From assembly GCA_013239625.1 (NCBI GenBank), contig MU053645.1, positions 1,046,274 to 1,110,273 of the forward strand: a DNA stretch of 64,000 bases, in the 5' to 3' direction. The translations under genes were made by a program, and so were the position numbers. The notes under the pieces were generated by a model that worked only from the letters and a program-made list of their open reading frames with translations, was not told where the DNA came from and made no database searches. Within the stretch, counting starts at the first letter, position 1. Every line of letters starts with the position of its first letter. This document shows positions 3,381-64,000 of this stretch, in pieces. The DNA comes from Lama guanicoe (lineage: Eukaryota).

Positions 3381-3980
3381 CTTCCATGAGGCAAAATAGT
3401 ATATGTGCTTGAAGGTAATGAGACTTTATTAAAAACCATATATTTATGTATATAAGTGTCTATACACATATACACATTTTGAAATTTCTTACTCTGAAGT
3501 CACATCTATATATATTGCTCTAGTATCTTTGGTTGCTTGGATATGAATTTGTCTGTATGTTGGCTTTATGGTATATCTGTTTTGGTGTCAAAATGTCTAA
3601 CATGTTTAATAATTTTTATTTTTCAGCTGAACTTCCATAGAGATGTGAGTATATTTTCTACATAAGACACGAAGAGACCATTAGTTTTAATGGCCTCCTC
3701 TTTCATGATTTCACAGATGTTTCGGTCTGAGTACTAAAAGAGTCACCATTTCCAAACCAGTTTTTACATCCATTTATTAGCTCCAGGTCTCTCAAATTCA
3801 AGGATAAGGCTATAATCTCTTCTATATGACCTGAAGTTTAGGTTATTCATGAATTATCTGCAAGACCCTAGGCCAGCCAGCACAGATTTTCTGATAGCTC
3901 TTCATAAATGATACACTGTTTTTCTGGCTCTGGGAATCATGTAGGAAATAGATTTTTCTGTTCCTTTCCCTTTAAAGAGT

Positions 3981-4482
3981 TGTCGACTGAAATAAATGCA
4001 CAGCTTAAAAGCTGAGAATTATGTTTTATTTGGTGGCCATTTCTGAGGACTTGAACCCCTTCAAGCCCAGGATGACACTCTCTCAGATCATTCTGAGGGA
4101 CTGCTCCAAAGAGGCAGGGGAGGAGCCAGGATCTATAGGAGTTTTACAACAAAGACTAGGTAGTCAGAACATTAAAAGGTTACTTGTTAACTGAAGAAAA
4201 CCAGACATCTCAAGTTAGAGAATTTAGCTCTTTTCTCTGTATGGGAGGAAGCAAATATTTGGGCTCACTGAATTCATTCCTTTGACAAGCCCCTAGCTAT
4301 CCAGGGCCAGTATCCTGTCCTTTCTTATTCTGAGTCCCCTCAGGGTGCCCCACTGTGAGTGGCTGCAGAGGCTGGGCTGCAGGCTTGTCTTCACTGGGGG
4401 GTGGCAGCAGCCGCTGATGACTTACTTAATGGCTTCAGCATTCTTTGTTTACTGATGTGGTTTGTAGTATTTTTTGTTCATG
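3981..4482 (-). mobile_element. Solo ERV1-like LTR, family A copy 1 (lineage-specific)
   Basis: Homologous along its length to 59304-60261 and 60658-61133; minus strand has AATAAA near the 3' end and finishes in ...GTCGACA; 4-bp flanks GAGT/GAGC. Confidence 0.85.
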
Positions 4483-5403: not shown

Positions 5404-5441
5404 NNNNNNNNNNNNNNNNNNNNNNNNNNNNNNNNNNNNNN
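5404..5441. other. Assembly gap (N run) next to a poly-T/poly-A tract
   Basis: Run of N. Confidence 0.99.
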
Positions 5442-7575: not shown

Positions 7576-8280
7576 AGCCACTGTGGAAAACAGTGTGGAG
7601 ATTCCTCAAAAGACTAGGAATAGACTTACTGTATGTATGACCCAGGAATCCCACTCCTGGGCTTGTACCCAGAAGGAACCCTACTTCAGGATGACACCTG
7701 CACCCCAATGTTCACAGCAGCACTATTTACAATAGCCAAAACATGGAAACAGCCTAAATGTCCATCAACAGGTGACTGGATAAAGAAGATGTGGTATATT
7801 TATACAATGGAATACTACTCAGCCATAAAAACCGACAACATAATGCCATTTGCAGCAACATGGATGCTCCTGGAGAATGTCATTCTAAGTGAAGTAAGCC
7901 AGAAAGAGAAAGAAAAATACCATATGAGATCGCTCATATGTGGAATCTAAAAAACAAAAACAAACAAACAAACAAAAACAAAGCATAAATACAGGACAGA
8001 AATAGACTCACAGACAGAGAATACAGACTTGTGGTTACCAGGGGGGTAGAGGGTGGGAAAGGATAGACTGGGATTTCAAAATTGTAGAATAGATAAACAA
8101 GATTACACTGTATAGCACAGGGAAATATACACAAAATGTTATGATAAATGACAGAGAAAAAAATGTGACAATGAGTGTGTATATGTCCATGAATGACTGA
8201 AAAATTGTGAACACTGGAATTTGACACAACATTGTAAAATGATTATAAATCAATAAAAAAAAAAGAAAGAAAAAAAAAAA
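7576..8280 (+). mobile_element. Young 5'-truncated L1: ORF2 C-terminus, 3'UTR and poly(A)
   Basis: ORF 7633-7950 is the L1 ORF2p C-terminus (YDPGIPLLG...[13 protein letters not shown]...SLICGI*); AATAAA plus A-tail; near-identical flanks AAAAAACCCTTTA (7564-7576) / AAAAAACCTTTA (8275-8286) at a TT/AAAA site. Confidence 0.95.
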
Positions 8281-20647: not shown

Positions 20648-21648
20648 TGGTAGTCCCCCCTTATCAGTTGTTTTGCTTTCTGCAGTTTCAATTACCCACA
20701 GTTCCCTTCATCCAAAAATATTATATGAAAAATTCCAGAAAAATTTCGTAAGTTTTAAATTGCACACCATTATGAATAGTGTGATGAACTCTCATGCCAT
20801 GCAACTCCATCCCATCCTGGACATGAATTATCCCTTTGTCCAGCATAACATGCCCATGAATCACTTAGCAGCCATGAAGGTTATCAGAGAAACTATCCTG
20901 CTATCTCAGTGCTTGTGCTCAAGTAACCCTTATGTTACTTAATAATGGCCCCAAAGTGCAAGAGTCATGATGCCGGCAATTTGGATGCCAAAGAGAAGCC
21001 GTCGAAGTGCTTCTGTACAGGAAGCATGAAAAAGTAAATATTCTCAACTTCATAAGGAAAGAAAAAAATATATGCTGAGATTTCTAAGATCTATGGTAAG
21101 AAGGAATATTCTGTGAGATTGTGAAGGAGAAAGAAATTCATGGTACTTTTGCTATCACACCTCAAACTGCAAAAGGTATGGTCACAGTGCATGATTAAGT
21201 GCTTAGTTAAGATGGAAAAGACATTAAATTTGTGAGTGGAAGACATGAACAGAAAACGTGTTCCCACTGACAGCAACATGTTGTGCCAGAAAGCATGGAA
21301 ACTGTATAAAGATTTCAGCACGGAATCCCCTGAGATAAGTGACATCAAGCCATTTACTGCAAGTAAGGGATGGTTATATCGATTCAGGAATAGGTTGGGA
21401 CTGAAAAATACAGAAAATATTGAAGAGGCTACAACTGACAATGAAGAAGCCACTGCCTCACTTCCGGCAGAGCTGAACAAGGTGATTAAGGAGAGAGACC
21501 ACATTCATATAACTTTTATTATAGTATATCATTGTAATTGTTTAATTGTATTATTAATTATTATTGCTAATCTCTTACTGTGCCTAATTTCTAATTTAAA
21601 CTTTATCATAGGAATGTGTGTATAGGAAAAAATATAGTGTATGTGTAC

Positions 21649-32012: not shown

Positions 32013-32302
32013 TCCATAGAACACAAACTTGTGGTTGCCAAGGGGGAGGGGAGGTGGGAAGGGACAGACTGGGAGTTCAAAATTTATAGATACTGACAGG
32101 CATATGCAGAATAGATAAACAAGACTATACTGGATAGCACAGGGAAATATATACAGGATCCTGTGGTAGCTCACAGCAAAAAAAAAAAAAATGTGACAAT
32201 GAATATATGTATGTTCATGTATAACTGAAAAATTGTGCTCTACACTGGAATTTGACACAACATTGTAAAATGACTATAGCTCAATAAAAAAAAAGTTTAA
32301 AA
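32013..32302 (+). mobile_element. Young L1 3'UTR fragment inserted in a MIR
   Basis: Same 3'UTR family as 7576-8280; TSD AAATACCTGTCTA (32000-32012) / AAATACCTATCTA (32303-32315). Confidence 0.92.
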
Positions 32303-34579
32303 AAATACCTATCTACAAAGTAGTCTAAAAGAGCTGATTCACTGTCCCATCTTCTTTATGGTTAGACCATATGACAGCAGTCATTTTAATCACATGGAGT
32401 TGTATTTCCAGAGCATGACTTCACCATATCTTCTCCAAAAAGTTATACATTAAAATCTCATATTCTGTTGCTGTTCTAATGAGTGGCGCATTGAACGGAA
32501 GAAGCAAATCACATCTTAGACATGGATAAAACTTCAAATCAAATTATTTCTTCGATAACAAAAGGCTTCACCACCAAATGCAAACAAATATTTGGTCTTG
32601 TAATCATTGTCTTGTTTTTGTTCAGTTCTAGATATTCAGCTTCTCCACAAGAAATTCACAGGTTGTCATATTAATTGTTTTCAGAAGAGACATAATGCAA
32701 TTGGTGATCTGAATACATAAGAACTGAAGACAAATTAATTGGGAAACTTGGGACCTTGTTAAAATGAGTTTGTGTGTAACTTCTTTCTGACTTCTGACCA
32801 GGAAACTTTTGTCACCAATACTTTTTACTTAGGGACTAGTGTTCGCCCTGAAAATCAATTAAGCTTATCTATTAAAACAAACTACTTAATGAAACAGAAT
32901 CATCTGATTTAACAAACATGTGTCAGTTATCATGTTAGGTTGTTTTTTACATATGATAACTTATTTCTTATTTAATCCTCAGAAAAATGAATGAGGTAAA
33001 AACTACTCCTAATAATTTTTCCTGATTTTCCTAAAGAGGAAACTAAATTTAAGAAAAGCTATTTGCTCATAGACATATAGTGAGTTTTGGGCAGTGAAAA
33101 AATTTAAACCTAGCGATTCAGACTTCAAATATAGCATCCTTTATATTCCACCACTACTGCTGTGAAAATCAGAAATGCTGTACGGGGTCAGACCTATGAT
33201 TTATCCAGCTTTCAATGCCAGTGCTGGGAGTCACAGTACAACATGGAGGCAAGTGTAAAAAGCTGGTACTCTAGTACAAGGATCACTCCCTGGCTCCTAA
33301 GTCAGAAGGCACACCTGATTCAGCATTTGAGACAAGACAGTGAATTAAATCAGGCAAGCACACACAAGTCTGAAAACACAGGACAAATTATGACAGGCTT
33401 GACAAAGCCAAGATATGGGAACAAGAAAGGCTTAATCCTAGAGACGAGGTAAATATTCAGGAATCTGGAAATTCATAGGAAGCAAAGGGCCAGGCTCAAT
33501 CATCAGGAGAACAAACATATGGCATCAATAAGAAGGTATGTTCAAAACCAATGCAGCCCATTTCCTACCCAGGTAGCTTCTTAAAAACTAACCAAGATAA
33601 CAGACAATTGTTCAAAGAGCCTAATAAATATTTCTCTCTCCTATTGATCCTAAATGACAGATTGAAAGCTTCAAAGCATATTCCATTTTTCATTTCTAAT
33701 ACCAAGCAAACTCTTCTTTATCTAAAGAACATACGGTGAAAAACCAATCAAATATTTAGACTTAAATTGGTTGCATAAGGACCACATGCGGAAATAATTT
33801 TAAAATAATACATACGTGTATAGGAAACTTTGAAGCGTTTTTGGAAAAAATCACAAAGCTTGCATTTATACCCAGAGACAATTAGGCAAAAAGCATTTCA
33901 GGATGCTGGGGAGTATCAGCCCTTAAGAAAAAGGGACTTGTTTTGAAAGGAATAATAGCTAAAAGCCTTCAGCTCGGATTGAGAGCAAAATGACATCATA
34001 TAAACAACGTAAATCACAAAACACTTATTGCTTAATGTCATCATATGGAAGCACATTTTGCTGAGGTAAATATAACGAATGGGAACGCTTCATTCTATCC
34101 TGAAGTCCATGTGTTACAGGGACAACAGGCACTGGGAGAGTGTTGGCTACCTATCCATGGATTCATGGATGTACTAATCAGTGAATCTCAACAGAGCTCA
34201 ATTTGCCCATTTCTCAGAGCCACGTCTTTGAAGTTAAATTGATAAAATAAAAGTACCATGTCTTTTTGTCCATGTCATAATCAAAGATGCCTCACAACCT
34301 CACTTGATATTAAAAATATGGCTAGGTTAGGTGGGCCAACTTAACCAAATGCTTTTATACCTCAAAACCACATTTATTTTAGACTTTGTTTAGAATAGCA
34401 CACCCTAAATACCAACTCCTGACCCAGGCTGTATTCCACTTGGGCTCTGAGCATGCTTAAACTGTCTTTTCCATATGCAAGTCAGCATGGCTCTTGAGTT
34501 ATAAACAACAACAATAACAATAAGCATAACAGCTACTACTTACTGAGCACTTCTGTATGTCAAGCACTGTGCTACACAC

Positions 34580-42345: not shown

Positions 42346-43166
42346 TTTCAAGAAAGAGCAGGGAACAAGAGACTCAAGAAATCCCATTTGTCATCACCAC
42401 TCAGGAACTATATGGTACCCTGGGCGAGTCACTTCACCAATTGGTCTCATCTGTAAAATGAGGAACTTAGAGTAGATGATTTTTAAGGTCTCCTTACAGA
42501 CCTACTATACTGAGTGTGTGAACAGCTCTGCAAAGATAGAAGACTACTGAGACTAAACCTCACAAACTACTTTCATCCAAGTCCCAGTCCTACATTTTCT
42601 AAAAGTAGCTGCACATTTTTACTTAAATGTCTAACCACTAGCATCTAGCAAGTCCTAATCCAAACTGCTCTTCACTCAAACATTGATTTTCTTATTTGTA
42701 AATGATTCTACTATCAAAACAATCCAACTAATGTTTGGAATCATCCTTATCTCTTGTATTTCTCTAGTCTCCCATCTCCAGCCAGTCACACATCTCTAGC
42801 AATATGGTCTTCTTGCTATTTCTTTCACCTATTCCTTCCTTTCCACTCTACTGGCTATCAATATTATCCATGCTCCTTATCTACTCATACCTTCATAGCT
42901 CTTGGCTCTTGGCTCTTGCCACTCTTATTTCTGAAGCTTTAGTGTTATCATGTAATCATCTACCTAGCCCATCCACATAACTCCCACAATCTCACCCCTA
43001 CTCAAAGCCTTCAATAACTCCTTGCTGCCTCCAAAGGAAGGTCAAAACTCCTTCACCTGCCATTCAGGTTGCCTTCAACAACTGACTGTATAAACTTAAT
43101 ATGTTTAATGAAAGGATACCCAACACTGCTAATTATTAGAGAAATGCAAATCAAAACCACAATGAG

Positions 43167-44360
43167 GGGGACGAAGCAAGATGTTGGAGTAGAAGGATGC
43201 TTGTAGCTCACCCTCTCCCACAAATACACCAAAACTCACATCTACGGACCCACTCAGCCAACCAGAGCACCTGAAGAACTCTGACAGATCATCGCCCTCT
43301 TCAAAAGATAAAGACGCCAAAAATCTGGTAGGAGAAAAGGAAAAAAGAAAGAACAAAAGGCAAAGCAGCGCGGGACGGGTCCCGCGGGGAGGGAGCGGCA
43401 AAGGAGGACTGGCGCTCGCTCGCTGGGTCTCCCCTCTCCAACCGAGAGGCCAGCGGGAAGGAGGGGGAGCCCCGAGGCTCAGATCTACCCCAAGCACCCG
43501 TTGACCGATAGAACTGAGTTAAACGGGCACAAAGGGTCACCGCGACATCCAGTCCTGAGAAGCGAGCCGGCAGCTGGGATAGGGACAGGCCGCTCAACCC
43601 AGGCGGAGGACGGGGGCGGCTGCACTGAGGCAGGGGGCTGCGTGCCATGGCTGGGAGGGGATACGGAGCAGAGCCACCTCAGTCCCCCATAAATTGCGGG
43701 AAAAGTGAAGCAACATGGCTGGTGTGCCCTGGGGGTAGGGGCACCATAGCTTTTGTCTCCTCAGACCTGCACCACCATTACTGGCGCTTCTCCCGAGGAG
43801 AGAGTCGGGGCGCAGCCACAGCTGCCATCTCCTCCCGTGTGCAGCGCCCAGGCGGGGGCGGGGCCGAGACCTGAATCCACACCCGGGCCCTCTGCATCCT
43901 CCTAGGCAGGACTGAGACTTGTTTACTGCCCGAGGGAGATAGGATCTTTCTGCCCTGGCACCTCAGAGAACTTGCGCCGCCAAGACAAACAAGGAGCTGA
44001 GATTTGGCACCCAGCAGACGCGGGGCCGTTCCGTGGTCTTCCCCGAGCCCTTCGAACACCAACCCGAGGCGGAGCGGGGAGCGGCACAGAGCAGCAGAGC
44101 GACCCGCGACGGGAGAGGGTGGGCACGATCCGCCCACCTGCCTCGCGAAGCGCAGCATCTGACTGGGACATCGGGAAGGGGAGTGACCCACCCGCCCACC
44201 AGAACAGAGCTCAGCACCTGACCCAGTGCTGGGAGGGGGCGCGATCTGCCTGCCGACAGCCACTGGGAGCAGCACAGATGAGGGCGCCAACAGAGGGCCT
44301 CTGGAAACAGCAAGCTGAGTTCGCGAAACGGGGCAAAGACACAAAGGCCTGTCGATAAAA
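43167..44360 (+). promoter_or_regulatory. L1 5'UTR internal promoter / only CpG island in the window
   Basis: High GC and many intact CpGs, GC boxes (gggggcggggcc at about 43854). Confidence 0.75.
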
Positions 44361-44361
44361 A

Positions 44362-44740
44362 CATCAAGTACAGGACGCTCACATGGTCCCAAACAGGAAG
44401 AACCCAAATAGACCCACACCAAGACATATCATAATCAAGATGGCCAGAGTCAAGGATAAATAAATGATTCTAAAGGCAGGAAGAGAAAAGCAAAGAGTGA
44501 GTTACAAGGGAACCCCCATAAGGAGCTCTCAGCTCTCTACACAAACACCATAGGCCTGAAGGGAGTGGCAAGATATATTCAAAGCCCTGAATGAAAAAAA
44601 GATGCAGCCTAGGATACTCTATCCAGCAAGGCTATCCTTTAGGATAGGAGGAGAGATAAAGAACTTCACAGGCAAGAAAAAACTACAAGAGTTTAGCAAC
44701 ACTGAACCTGCTAAAAGAAATATTGACGGGTCTACTCTAA
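44362..44740 (+). pseudogene. L1 ORF1p C-terminal remnant (end of RRM plus CTD), with stops
   Basis: Translates HQVQDAHMVPNRKNPNRPTPRHIIIKMARVKDK*MILKAGREKQRVSYKGTPIR...WQDIFKAL...MQPRILYPARLSF. Confidence 0.92.
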
Positions 44741-44871
44741 ATAGAAAAGAAGCAGGATGCTACAAAAATGAGAAACTCATAACTGGAAAGGAGATAACTG
44801 CCATGAATTACAAAAAGAATAAACACAAAACTGTAAAAGAAGACATCTAAATCATTAAGAGTGGGAGAGGG

Positions 44872-45328
44872 TAAAGAAGATGTGGTATATTTATACAATG
44901 GAATACTATTCAGCCATAAAAACCAACAACATAACGCCATTTGCAGCAACATGGATGTTNNNNNNNNNNNNNNNNNNNNNNNNNNNNNNNNNNNNNNNNN
45001 NNNNNNNNNNNNNNNNNNNNNAAAAAAAAAAAAAAGCATAAATACAAAACAGAAATAGACTCATAGACATAGAATACAAACTTGTGGTTGCCAAGGGGGT
45101 GGAGGGTGGGAAGGGATAGATGGGTTTTAAAATTGTAGAATAGATAAACAAGATTATACTGTAAAGCACAGGGAAATATACACAAGATCTTATGGTAGCT
45201 CACAGAGAAAAAACTGTGACAATGAATATATATATGTTCATGTATAACTGAAAAATTGTGCTCTATACTGAAATTTGACACAACATTGTAAAATGATTAT
45301 AAATCAATAAAAAATGTTTAAAAAAAAA
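44872..45328 (+). mobile_element. Youngest nested 5'-truncated L1 (contains N gap 44960-45021)
   Basis: Perfect 15-bp TSD AAGAGTGGGAGAGGG (44857-44871 / 45329-45343) at a TT/AAGA site; AATAAA plus poly(A). Confidence 0.9.
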
Positions 45329-47469
45329 AAGAGTGGGAGAGGGAAGCAAGGAAAGCCACTGTGGAAAACAGTATGGAGATTCCTCAAAAGACTAGGAATA
45401 GACTTACCATATGACCCAGGAATCCCATTCCTGGGCATATATCCAGAAGGAACCCTACTTCAAAATGACACCTGCACCCCTATGTTCATAGCAGCATTAT
45501 TTACAATAGCCAAGACATGGAAACACCTTAAATGTCCATCAACAGATGACTGAGTAAAGAAGATGTGGTATATTTATACGATGGAATACTATTCAGCCAT
45601 AAAAACTGACAACATAACGCTGTCTGCAGCAACATGGATGTTCCTGGAGAATGTCATTCTAAGTGAAGTAAGCCAGAAAGAGAAAGAAAAATACCATATG
45701 TGATCACTCATATGAGGAAACAAAAACAAAAACAAAACAAACAAAGAAAACACATAAACACAAAACAGAAACAGAATCATAGACATAGAATACAATCTTG
45801 TGGTTGCCAAGGGGGCAGGGGGTGGGAAGGGACATACTGGGATTTTAAAATGCAGAATAGATAAACAAGATTATACTGTATAGCACAGGGAAATATATAC
45901 AAGATCTTGTGGTAGCCCATAGCAGAAAAAAAATATGACAATGAATATATATATGTTCGAGTATAACTGAAAATTTGTGCTCTATACTAGAATTTGACAC
46001 AACATTGTAAAATGACTATAACTAAATAAAAAATTGTAAAAAAACAAAAAACAAAAAAACAAAAAAACCCACAATGAGATATCACCTCACCCTTGTCAGG
46101 ATAAATACCATCAAAAAATCTGTAAATAACAACTGTTGGAGAGGATGTTGGAAGAAAAGGGAAGGAACCCTTGTATGCTGTTGGTAGGAATGTAAATTGG
46201 TGCAGCCACTATGGAAAACAATATGGAGGGTCCTCAAAAAACTAAAAATAGAACTGTCATATGATTAGCAATTCTGCTCCTGGATATGGATCTGTTAAAA
46301 AATATGAAAACACTAATTCAAAAAGATGCATGCACCCCAATGTTCACATCAGTAGTATTTACAATACCTAAGACATGGAAGCAACCCATGTGCCCATCAA
46401 CAGACGACTGGAATAAGAAGTCGTATATATACAATGGAATATTAGCCATAAAAAGAATGAAATACTGCAATTTGCAGCAACACAGATGGACCTAGAGAAT
46501 ATTACACTTAGTGAAGTAATTCAGACAAAGATAGATACTGTTCATCACTTACATGTGGAATCTACAAAAATAAAATAAATGAATGTATATGCAAATCAGA
46601 AACAAACTCACAGACATAGCAAAAACACCAGGGGTTACCAAAGGGGAAGGGAAGGGGGGAGGGGCAAGATAGGGTTATGGGATTAACAGATACTAACTAC
46701 TACATATAAAATAGATAAGCAACAGGGATATATTGTATAATACAAGGAATTATATCCATTATCTTGTAATAACCTATAATGGAATATAATCTGCAAAAAT
46801 ACTGTATCACTATGCTGTACACCTCAACCTAACATAGTGTTATAAATCACACTAGACTTCAACCAAAAACACAACATGGGCTGTTCAATTTCCCTGAGCC
46901 TAAGTGTTCCTGTTTGTGAAATGGACATAACAGTTTACCCTACATACTTCAGAATGTTGTGAGCGTATCATATGAAAAAATGTTGATATGAAATATAAAG
47001 AATGCAAAATAAACTATTGCTTAAACAACCCAGAGCTCCTACCACTTCAAATGCAAATTATTTAATGGAGTTTTATATCACCAAAATTAAGTTTCAGGAA
47101 TGATTTTTCCTAAAGGGGAACCATCTAATGATTTGTTTGCGGAGTCAGAGGTTGGAATAAATAACCTGTCTCAAAGGCCCATTCCAACTCTGAAAGTTAG
47201 TTGGCACCTCTTAACAACTGCTTACATTAGAAACTGAGGGTAAAAGTAATTAAGTTACAGAAATAAAGGCAATGCCTAGTAGTTAATACCATGTGTTCTG
47301 GAGTCAGCCAACCTGGGTCCAAATCTTGACTCTCCCAGTTAATAGCTGTGTGAACACAGAAAACTTAATTAATGTATAAATGCCATTACCATCTAAAATC
47401 TGTTTTGTTCATAAAGAGAAAAAAAATGAAAGGTACCCAAAAACCCATCAATACACACTTTCTGAAAAA

Positions 47470-55782: not shown

Positions 55783-57348
55783 TTAAGTGGGTGTTATCTG
55801 TCTTGAGTTGGAGCCAGCTTTGTCTAGTGGCATGGAGGTGTTGCCGTTATGTCCATGAAAGGAGACTTTAAGCTGCCTCTCTAGAGTGATGACAAAGAAT
55901 GGATAAGGTCTGAGTGAGACTGAGGAGGGGCACTATTAAAGACACTCAAGTGAGAGATGTTATATTTATAAGCACCCAAACACGTGGTTGAAAAAGGTGA
56001 CTTCCGGCAATCGTGGTGAAAAAAGCTAGAAATGGGCTTACAATGAGCTAAGTGGTCAAAAAGAAGTTTGCAAATCTAAAAATACCTGTGCTTGTAATCC
56101 TCAGGGCACTTTAAACTGACCAGCTGTTCTCCAGTTTAGTAATACGTGTAATAACCCTCACACTGACTCTGGCGATACAGGTGCAGGTCCTCTTAACGGA
56201 AAGACAGACTCCTAAATGCTGCCGAGTCTTGGCTGATCCATTACTCAGTTATAGAATTTTGAAATTTTGGGAATGTCATTTTCTGTTTAGGAGTCAAGGT
56301 TTGACTTTAAATATTTTAAATCCAAATTATGGGCTCTAGCATTAAACAGACCAGCATTCATATCCCAGATCTGCCTCTGACTAGGTCTGTGAACTTGGAA
56401 TTTACTTAACCTCTATCCTTCAGTTCCCTGAGTTCTAAAATGGAGACTCACTCAACTTATTCTGCAAGGTTGTTGTTGGGCTAAAAAGTAACAGGGCAAA
56501 GCGTTTAGCACAGTGGCTGGCTCACAGAGAGCACACACAAAGCGCTGACTGCTTTTGTTTTGGGGCTATCTCATAATGGACACGTTGTCAAATTATCTTA
56601 GTATTTTAATAGCTTCTTTGGACAGAAAACATCACCGGCCAGATTGTACTTTTGTCTTAGTGCAATAATTTTAATTTTGGAGAAGGCTAAGTAGCAATAC
56701 CGAATTCTATAACCCGAGGCTTTGCTATCTAGTGTAGCACCCTGAATTACTGTTCTAATAAAGAATGATTCTGCCTCTTAAAGTCCTTGCATTGAACAAC
56801 AGAAATGCTGATTGGAATTCTACAAAAAGGGGGCTCCCCAAAGGAAAGAAGTTTATGAAACGCTGGATTAAGTAAAATTAAATTCCTTTACCATTAAATT
56901 TCTCAAAGTTTTCATTATCCTAACATGTGTGGCAAATTTCCTGGAGGGAACAATACTATGGAGCATTTCCCAATGGATCTGACCATGTAACACCTTTTCT
57001 GGAAAAAAAAAAAAAAAAAAACGTACAGAAATTAGTATTGCACAGAACATACTTTGGGAAATACTGTCCTGATCATTCTAAACCTTTCAGTGATGGGGGG
57101 TGGGGTGGGAAGGGAGGCAGAGCACTCACAAGTCAGCATTCCCTCTTTATAACATAAGTCAAACTGCCTTGTACCAAGTCATAGAGAAGTCCAACTCCTC
57201 TGGACATACTGTAAATCTGTTGTAGCAAGTATTACTTTGATGGCTGAAGAGATCATTATAACTTAGGTAGCAGCATTTGGTCTTTACGAAAAGTAAGAGA
57301 TTTAAATTATCTGTAGGGGAGAGAAGACATGGGAAGAACCACCCCCTT

Positions 57349-57819
57349 TGTAACGGAAACGACAGGCCAGTCAAGAAACACGCACCACTTGGAGGGTTGG
57401 AGTACTCAGATGTATTACGCCGGGGGCTCAGAGGGGCTTCTGCTCTGAAGCTCTGAGCACCTCCAAGATGTGCACATGAGGTTTTATAGGGTAAAGTACA
57501 AGCTTGGGGTATTCGGCCAATAGGCATGGAACAGCTTTAGCAACATTATCATCACAAAAGTGGAGGTGGAGGTGGGGAGGCAGCAAACCAACATTCCAAA
57601 GCCAGATATGTATCTTTGAAAACCCAAACCCAGCTGGAAAAAAACATAGACAGCAAACCAACACTAATTAATTTAGATTTACAAGTTAGTCCAGCAGAAC
57701 TCAGATCAGTATTCCAATACTTAGATTTGTGAGTTATCTTGTTAGACCAGCCCAGCCTCCCCTTCACATTCCTAGACTTGTGAGTTATCTTGTTAGACCA
57801 CCCCGGCTTTTCCTTCACA
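57349..57819 (-). mobile_element. Solo ERV LTR, family B copy 1 (471 bp, young)
   Basis: TG...CA termini, perfect TSD CCTT (57345-57348 / 57820-57823); minus-strand TATAAAA at about 57482-57488 with a CCAAT nearby; highly similar to 59610-60080. Confidence 0.92.
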
Positions 57820-59303: not shown

Positions 59304-60261
59304 TGTGAATGAAAAATACTGCAAGCCATATCAGTAAACAAAGAATGCTGAAGCCATCAAGTCATCAGAGGCTGCTACCATCCACCAGTGAAGACAAGCC
59401 TGCAGCCCAGCCTCTGCAGCCACTCACATTGGTGCCCCCTGAGGGGACTCAGAATAAGAAAGGACAGGATACTGGCCCTGGATAGCTAGGTGCTTGCCAA
59501 AGGAATGATTTCAATGGCCTTTGCTCCTCCCCATACATAGAAAAGAGCTAAATTCTTTAATTTGAGATTCCTGATTTTCTTTAGTTAGCAAGTAATCTTT
59601 TAATGTTCTTGTTACGGAAACGACAGGCCAGTCAAGAAACAAGCACCACTCGGAGGGTTGTAGCACTCAGATGTGTTACGCTGGCGGGCTCAAGAGGGGC
59701 TTCTGCTCCGAAGCTCTGAGCTCCTCCAAGACATGCGCATGAGGTTTTATAGGGTAAAGTACAAGCTTGGGGTATTCGGCCAATAGGCATGGAACAGCTT
59801 TAGCAGCATTATCATCACAAAAGTGGAGGTGGGGAGGCAGCAAACCAACATTCCAAAGCCAGATATGTATCTTTGAAAACCCAGCTGGCTAGCAAAAAAA
59901 CGTGAACAGCAAACCAACACTAATTAACCTAGATTTACAAGTTAGTCCAGCAGAACTCAGATCAGTATTCCAATACTTAGATTTGTGAGTTATCTTGTTA
60001 GCCCAGCCCAGCCCAGCCTCTCCTTCACATTCCTAGACTTGTGAGTTACCTTGTTAGCCCAGCCCGGGTTTTCCTTCACATTCTGACTACTTGGTCTTTG
60101 TTGTAAAGCTCCTATAAATCCTGGCTCCTCCCCTACCTCTTAGGAGCAGTCCCTCAGAGAAATCTGAGAGGCTGACATCCCAGGCGGAGTCCTCAGAATT
60201 GTCCACCAAGTAAAAATATTAACTCTCAACTTTTAGGCTGTGCATTTTATTTCAGTCGACA
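59304..60261 (+). mobile_element. Solo LTR family A copy 2, interrupted by a family B LTR
   Basis: TGTGAA...GTCGACA termini, perfect TSD AAAC (59300-59303 / 60262-60265). Confidence 0.92.
59610..60080 (-). mobile_element. Solo LTR family B copy 2 (471 bp), nested in family A copy 2
   Basis: TG...CA termini, perfect TSD TTCT (59606-59609 / 60081-60084); the host LTR reads continuously once it is removed. Confidence 0.93.
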
Positions 60262-60657
60262 AAACAAACCTATTTTTACTCAACTACATCAGGTCAGAGT
60301 AAGTGCTATGCAGCCCTCATGTAAGCCAGTCTGAGGAAGGTAAAAAAGAATGTATTTTCCTCTCTACCTAACATGATCCAGGCAGAATCCTGAAACAGTT
60401 GACTCTAAAGGGAAACTCCCAAATCCCCTCCCACAAAACCATTTTATACTTTCCTACGAGATGGGTGGGTTGATTTGGAAGGAAGAGCTAATGGGAAAAC
60501 AAAAGCCATTGTTTCCATCAAGTCTATGATTCTACAGCCAGCAACATCTGAAAGTCCATAAAGGAATGCCCCTACAGCAGAGACAGAGTCCTCATCCAGG
60601 AAATGCTAAAAAAAAAAATACAAAGGAAGCAATGAGGAAGGGGCACATAATTAAAGA

Positions 60658-61133
60658 TGTCAACTGAAATAAAATCACATAACCCAAAAGTAGAGAGTTA
60701 TGTTTTATTTCAAACCCCTTCGAGCCCAGGATGACGGCCTCCCAGATTGCTCTGAGGGACTGCTCCAAAAGGTAGGGGAGGAGCCAGGATAATAAAGGAC
60801 TTTTACAATAAAGACCAGGTAGTGAGAACATTAAATATTACTGTTAAAGAAAACCAGACATCTCAAATTAAAGAATGTAGCGCTTTTCTGTGTATGGGAA
60901 GGAGCAAACATTTGGGCTCATTGAATTCATTTCTTTGACAAGCACCTAGCTATCCAGGGCCAGTATTCTGTCCTTTCTTATTCTGAGTCCCCTCAGGGTG
61001 CACCATTATGAGTGGCTGCAGAGGCTGGGCTGCAGGCTTTGTCTTCACTGTGGGTGGGTGGTGGCAGCCTGATGATTTGATGGCTTCAGCATTCTTTGTT
61101 TACTGATATGGTTTTCAGTATTCTCTGTTCACA
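60658..61133 (-). mobile_element. Solo LTR family A copy 3
   Basis: Collinear with 3981-4482; flanks AAGA/CAGA. Confidence 0.9.
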
Positions 61134-63916: not shown

Positions 63917-64000
63917 GGGGGGTGGGAAGGGACAGACTGGGATTTCAAAATGTAGAAGAGATAAACAAGATTATACTGTATAGCACAGGGAAATATATAC
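63917..64000 (+). mobile_element. Young L1 3'UTR fragment running off the window
   Basis: gggggtgggaagggacagactgggatttcaaaatgtag...tatagcacagggaaatatatac, same family as 7576-8280. Confidence 0.9.

Follow-up and report, generated by a model that had tools for sequence, protein, structure and literature searches.

At positions 43167-46064 of the 64,000-nt Lama guanicoe window (the whole stretch of DNA that was analyzed) lies a dead L1 copy that retains both of its ends and has lost most of both ORFs; the element, its parts, and the L1 copies at 7576 and 32015 described below all read on the forward (+) strand. It spans 2,898 bp, 472 bp of which are a nested insert plus one copy of that insert's target-site duplication (TSD), leaving 2,426 bp net, in line with the ~2.4 kb given in an earlier note on this DNA. 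An outer TSD bounds the whole (43153-43166 and 46065-46078); the earlier note described it as a 14-bp repeat, which holds with one mismatch (13 of 14 positions identical, the final 10 exact). The element sits within ORF2 of an older L1, whose frame is broken at the left TSD copy and picks up again at the right one, leaving ORFs at 43018-43206 and 46026-46187 on either side. The TSD, A-tail, L1 5'UTR, and homology to ORF1 and ORF2 are those of an L1 insertion made by target-primed reverse transcription (TPRT). Named relatives of its sequences come from Camelus dromedarius, C. ferus, and Vicugna pacos, consistent with the camelid attribution made earlier. We identified a 5'UTR, the C-terminal part of ORF1, the inter-ORF spacer, the end of ORF2, the 3'UTR, and an A-tail, confirming the description of a copy with both ends kept and both ORF cores lost. 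This doubly deleted, dead camelid L1 copy is real.

The element opens with a GC-rich L1 5'UTR of ~1.2 kb (43167-44368) that contains three ~60-bp internal repeats (repeat family D9) and a degenerate YY1-like motif at 43177-43183, with the motif taken as written in PMC2912911. That a CpG-rich 5'UTR is retained was borne out: the segment 43168-44350 holds 71 CpG dinucleotides, with an observed/expected ratio of 0.63 versus 0.00 to 0.17 in seven other measured segments. An antisense frame runs without a stop across the junction between 5'UTR and ORF1 (junction 1), and searching 1.84 billion representative proteins with this frame yielded 10 matches, all of them antisense readings of related L1 5'UTRs that are colinear with that of the element except in repeat number. 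Two of the 10 (P0045 and P0049) extend past junction 1, and both run on as unbroken 5'UTR. Public camelid gene models also contain antisense L1 5'UTR sequence (P0044, P0046, and P0048, comprising dromedary cylicin-1, an alpaca hypothetical protein, and a wild-camel hypothetical protein); these reflect either annotation artifacts or antisense exon capture.

The ORF1 remnant (44365-44740) corresponds to residues 175 to 300 of the 300-residue ORF1 protein P0004, with 98 of 116 residues identical, and carries three stops, one 3-nt net gap, and one frameshift near its end. It comprises the second half of the RRM and the C-terminal domain: positions 42 to 95 of the 98-position Pfam RRM model are present and the first 41 are gone, and a dsRBD-like domain is present, but the trimerization domain (P0004 residues 90 to 131) is absent along with the rest of residues 1 to 174. 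Thus, the element does enter ORF1 midway, lacking the N terminus and coiled coil, as had been proposed. The jump itself stands, but its position, formerly given as about 44361, is best placed at 44365-44368, since the ORF1 match begins at 44365 and the 5'UTR match stops at 44368. The 4 nt shared by 5'UTR and ORF1 are CAAG; four more matching bases lie upstream if one base is gapped, for an imperfect overlap of 8/9 nt. The loss at junction 1 amounts to 174 codons plus probably ~20 nt of 5'UTR, which otherwise appears complete to ~20 nt short of the missing ORF1 start. None of the 10 antisense-protein matches contains junction 1, which is a very weak test, and a further protein search with the antisense frame spanning the junction gave no match. 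RNA folding at junction 1 was unremarkable (z = 0.68).

Discounting the nested insert, 141 nt of inter-ORF spacer are retained: a first part (44741-44871) that ends in the left TSD of the insert, followed by the right TSD of the insert (45329-45343) and 10 further spacer bases leading into junction 2 (segment 45329-45355). The ORF2 tail begins at 45354, where a second jump into the end of ORF2 had been placed, and extends to 45720; its length, put at the last 100 or so codons in the earlier note, is refined to ~122 C-terminal codons, with three premature stops. It is followed by the 3'UTR (45721-46064), with an A-rich tract, poly(A) signal, and degenerate A-tail, so that 676 nt lie between junction 2 and the element's 3' end. 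We delimited junction 2 against the old flanking L1 (46185-46222) and a truncated L1 at 7576: the AG at 45354-45355 is common to ORF2, and since the old L1 gives CAG on the ORF2 side where the element reads AAG, the overlap is at least AG. A protein search with the spacer frame, together with contig and literature searches, found no unbroken camelid spacer for this junction. With the insert discounted, the frame of a spacer ATG at 44803 continues across junction 2 into that of the ORF2 tail (segments 44803-44850 and 45344-45720), but a stop at 44848 closes it; such an in-frame join is expected by chance 1 time in 3. RNA folding at the old-L1 stand-in for junction 2 was likewise unremarkable (z = -0.98); the 97 nt downstream form a stable fold (z = -3.09) and the break itself carries a small hairpin, which provides a weak lead only. 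The ORF2 tail differs from the 7576 copy at 15 of 103 residues and the ORF1 remnant from P0004 at 14 of 111 codons (five codons around the gap were skipped); the two remnants have decayed similarly, with no sign of selection on either.

The insert within the spacer (44872-45328) is a 5'-truncated L1 consisting of the end of ORF2, 3'UTR, and A-tail, and is interrupted by a 62-N gap (44960-45021). Its status as a nested insert was confirmed by a perfect 15-bp TSD of its own (44857-44871 and 45329-45343). In 259 columns of 3'UTR, it shows 5 private changes and the host element 12. Of 11 informative columns, 8 place the host alongside the copy at 32015 and the insert alongside that at 7576, in a count that omits the old L1 and a partial copy at 63918. 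This separate subfamily grouping and the fewer private changes indicate that the insert is an L1 in its own right and younger than its host. We rejected a tandem duplication as its source, given an 8.6% difference, the other subfamily, and its own TSD; the ORF2 tail, having no TSD of its own, was likewise rejected as a separate insertion. The 32015 copy (32015-32305) is a truncated L1 with a marker of the older subfamily, a 22-nt 3'UTR segment that is common to the old L1 and missing in the younger copies.

The copy at 7576-8280 is younger and 5'-truncated and has a TSD of its own; its 5' end, directly after that TSD, is the same ORF2 base as that at junction 2. It is not a truncated sister of the element, since the 8 of 11 informative columns assign it to the other, younger subfamily. 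Under an exponential length model, and given the four young truncated copies that the window contains, the probability that one would fall within one base of junction 2 is 0.55 to 0.65%, for a single event noticed post hoc. The shared base hints at a site in L1 RNA or cDNA where stops or breaks recur, rather than at common descent.

Elsewhere in the window, a direct repeat pair of ~475 bp (57348-57819 and 59609-60080; 90.8% identical) is LTR-like, and its second copy appears to split an LTR-like element (59304-59609 and 60081-60262) related to 3972-4480 and 60651-61133. When 36 long ORFs from the rest of the window were compared with domain models, the sole above-cutoff match was a Tc5 transposase DNA-binding domain at 21236-21622 (+), which represents a Tigger-like DNA transposon fossil.

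We favor, at roughly even confidence, a one-off origin in which the element is the private product of a microhomology-guided jump or deletion. An L1 of an older camelid subfamily inserted by TPRT into ORF2 of the still older L1; reverse transcription would have covered ~700 nt from the tail and then dropped off in the usual truncation zone. For human L1, the median truncation point is 5.52 kb and the median length is 503 bp (10.1101/2024.08.27.596794), and junction 2, 676 nt from the 3' end, lies near it. The cDNA could then have moved to the spacer, which lies farther up in the L1 RNA, and re-paired with it through the AG overlap, creating junction 2, and template switching is reported to give same-orientation, multipiece insertions with TSD and microhomology (PMC11702581). 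Junction 1 may have formed via the CAAG microhomology, either by a second jump or by DNA deletion in the parent or in the copy itself. The product encodes no protein, and the younger L1 nested inside it later. The short overlaps at both joins, and the independent truncated copy at the same ORF2 base, suggest such an origin from sequence comparison. Several considerations run against it: that the joins are private is an assumption, any one-off mechanism should seldom produce two large losses in a single copy, the encounter of such a copy in a scan would be accounted for by a family, and AG closes both overlaps, as in splice junctions.

That last feature is what makes a spliced integrant resembling the SpIREs worth weighing, though we consider it unlikely: one or both gaps would be introns removed from an L1 RNA that was then copied in trans, and independent copies should recur at the same bases. 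RNAs spliced between 5'UTR and ORF1 are known to be mobilized in trans (PMC5860796), and the element, like a SpIRE, is bounded by a TSD and has both L1 ends. AG closes each join, the 5' side reading MAG, and the start shared with the 7576 copy marks that ORF2 base as special; an acceptor alone, however, does not account for a 5'-truncated copy beginning there. As for the GT..AG borders of an intron, AG is present at both 3' breakpoints (CAAG in ORF1 and CAG in the ORF2 of the old L1), but AG is also predicted by microhomology, and the acceptor at junction 1 would be an AAG in purine-rich ORF1, with what we judge a better CAG five bases downstream. On the donor side, the triplet after junction 1 in P0045 and P0049 back-translates only to ACT, AGA, CGA, GCT, GGA, or TGA, so GT is impossible there; since both proteins differ from the element by ~1 base per triplet just upstream of the junction, its own subfamily could have had GT, and splicing at junction 1 is weakened rather than eliminated. 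Far less probable than either reading is an artifact of short-read assembly, whether through collapse of a full-length L1 or through the joining of two copies. A 62-N gap does lie inside the element, but N runs occur in the window only there and at 5404-5441, and the gap, where the 7576 copy predicts ~80 bases, is bridged by both the 15-bp and the 14-bp TSDs. Overlaps of <10 nt are far below assembler word lengths and cannot drive repeat collapse. Because both junctions lie in N-free sequence and have overlaps of this size, the collapse of a full-length L1, raised as a caveat in the earlier note, is unlikely.

A family of gene-less L1s that propagated itself appears doubtful to us, at about the level of splicing. 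Here, two successive losses would have stripped ORF1 and ORF2 from a master with an intact promoter and 3' end, which would have been copied in trans; in a variant, junction 1 alone would be common to a small ORF1-less lineage that retained ORF2. In favor of a family, the overall shape suits a non-autonomous derivative, as the earlier note proposed, the 5'UTR is whole and colinear with its relatives, unlike those of human SpIREs, and could be re-transcribed, and two losses should be easier to gather stepwise in a lineage. The copy that shares the junction-2 base, however, belongs to the other subfamily and is no clonal sister, and the ORF-less bipartite LINEs reported in PMC5786205 come only from the RTE, Ingi, Vingi, and R2 clades. 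Neither junction turned up a second time, a very weak test given that the collections searched yielded no camelid L1 DNA. The junction-2 motif occurred at nine loci in metagenome contigs, all nine with matches of only 19 to 31 nt and no L1 around them; P0004 gave 6 pattern matches in viral contigs and 121 in genome contigs, none of which was confirmed, and a conserved 3'UTR motif gave 0 in both. The plasmid collection yielded no match, and the best ESM Atlas value (0.77) was uninformative. In a sequencing-run index, 20 of the 24 listed runs contain part of the 5' half of the element (best share, 0.48), which fits ordinary related L1 copies and carries no weight here. Only as a tentative possibility might camelids once have carried a ~2.4-kb protein-less L1 derivative that propagated itself, had its own intact Pol II promoter, and was mobilized in trans; it is similarly speculative that ORF1 and ORF2 were lost stepwise at a point where L1 RNA breaks repeatedly, namely the ORF2 base at which the 7576 copy also starts.

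The one-off origin that we favor has its closest counterparts in template-switched L1 insertions (PMC11702581, PMC2912911), which share one TSD, an A-tail, same-orientation pieces, and microhomology of 2 to 5 nt at the joins. The cited cases are mostly inversions or switches between transcripts, whereas here each join removes a large stretch of L1 itself, and the copy still has its true 5' end. SpIREs (Larson 2018, PMC5860796) are also TSD-bounded, with both ends and a join of 5'UTR to ORF1, and need help in trans; however, their donors lie near the start of the 5'UTR and leave a crippled promoter, whereas the 5'UTR of our element is whole, ORF2 was lost too, and a GT donor at junction 1 is not supported. 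HAL1 elements (PMC5753468, PMC5786205) are likewise derived from L1, lack most of ORF2, and keep the promoter, but they encode ORF1p; our element has lost the start of ORF1, the coiled coil, and half of the RRM, and with residues 1 to 174 of 300 missing we rejected its identification as a HAL1. The bipartite ORF-less LINEs RIME, NARTc, Bov-A, and RTESINE (PMC5786205) similarly consist of LINE 5' and 3' ends with the coding core deleted, and our element, too, has both ends and no coding capacity. They form multicopy families of the RTE, Ingi, Vingi, and R2 types, whereas the element is an L1 made up of three pieces, with a single known copy. In the open literature that we searched, no camelid element of this kind is described, though one may be listed in Repbase, Dfam, subscription journals, or the PMC8605555 supplements.

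Taken as a single copy, the element is an unexceptional, well-preserved relic of L1 copying gone wrong. Were it a member of a family, the L1 cis-preference would be beatable by a long L1-derived RNA that encodes no protein at all, in a lineage for which the one transposable-element survey consulted (PMC8605555) gives old MIR SINEs only; such a family would also give the L1 clade a counterpart to the bipartite LINE parasites described to date in other clades. If L1 truncations do spike at one ORF2 base, as the shared start of the 7576 copy hints, that base would offer a direct handle on where and why L1 reverse transcription stops.
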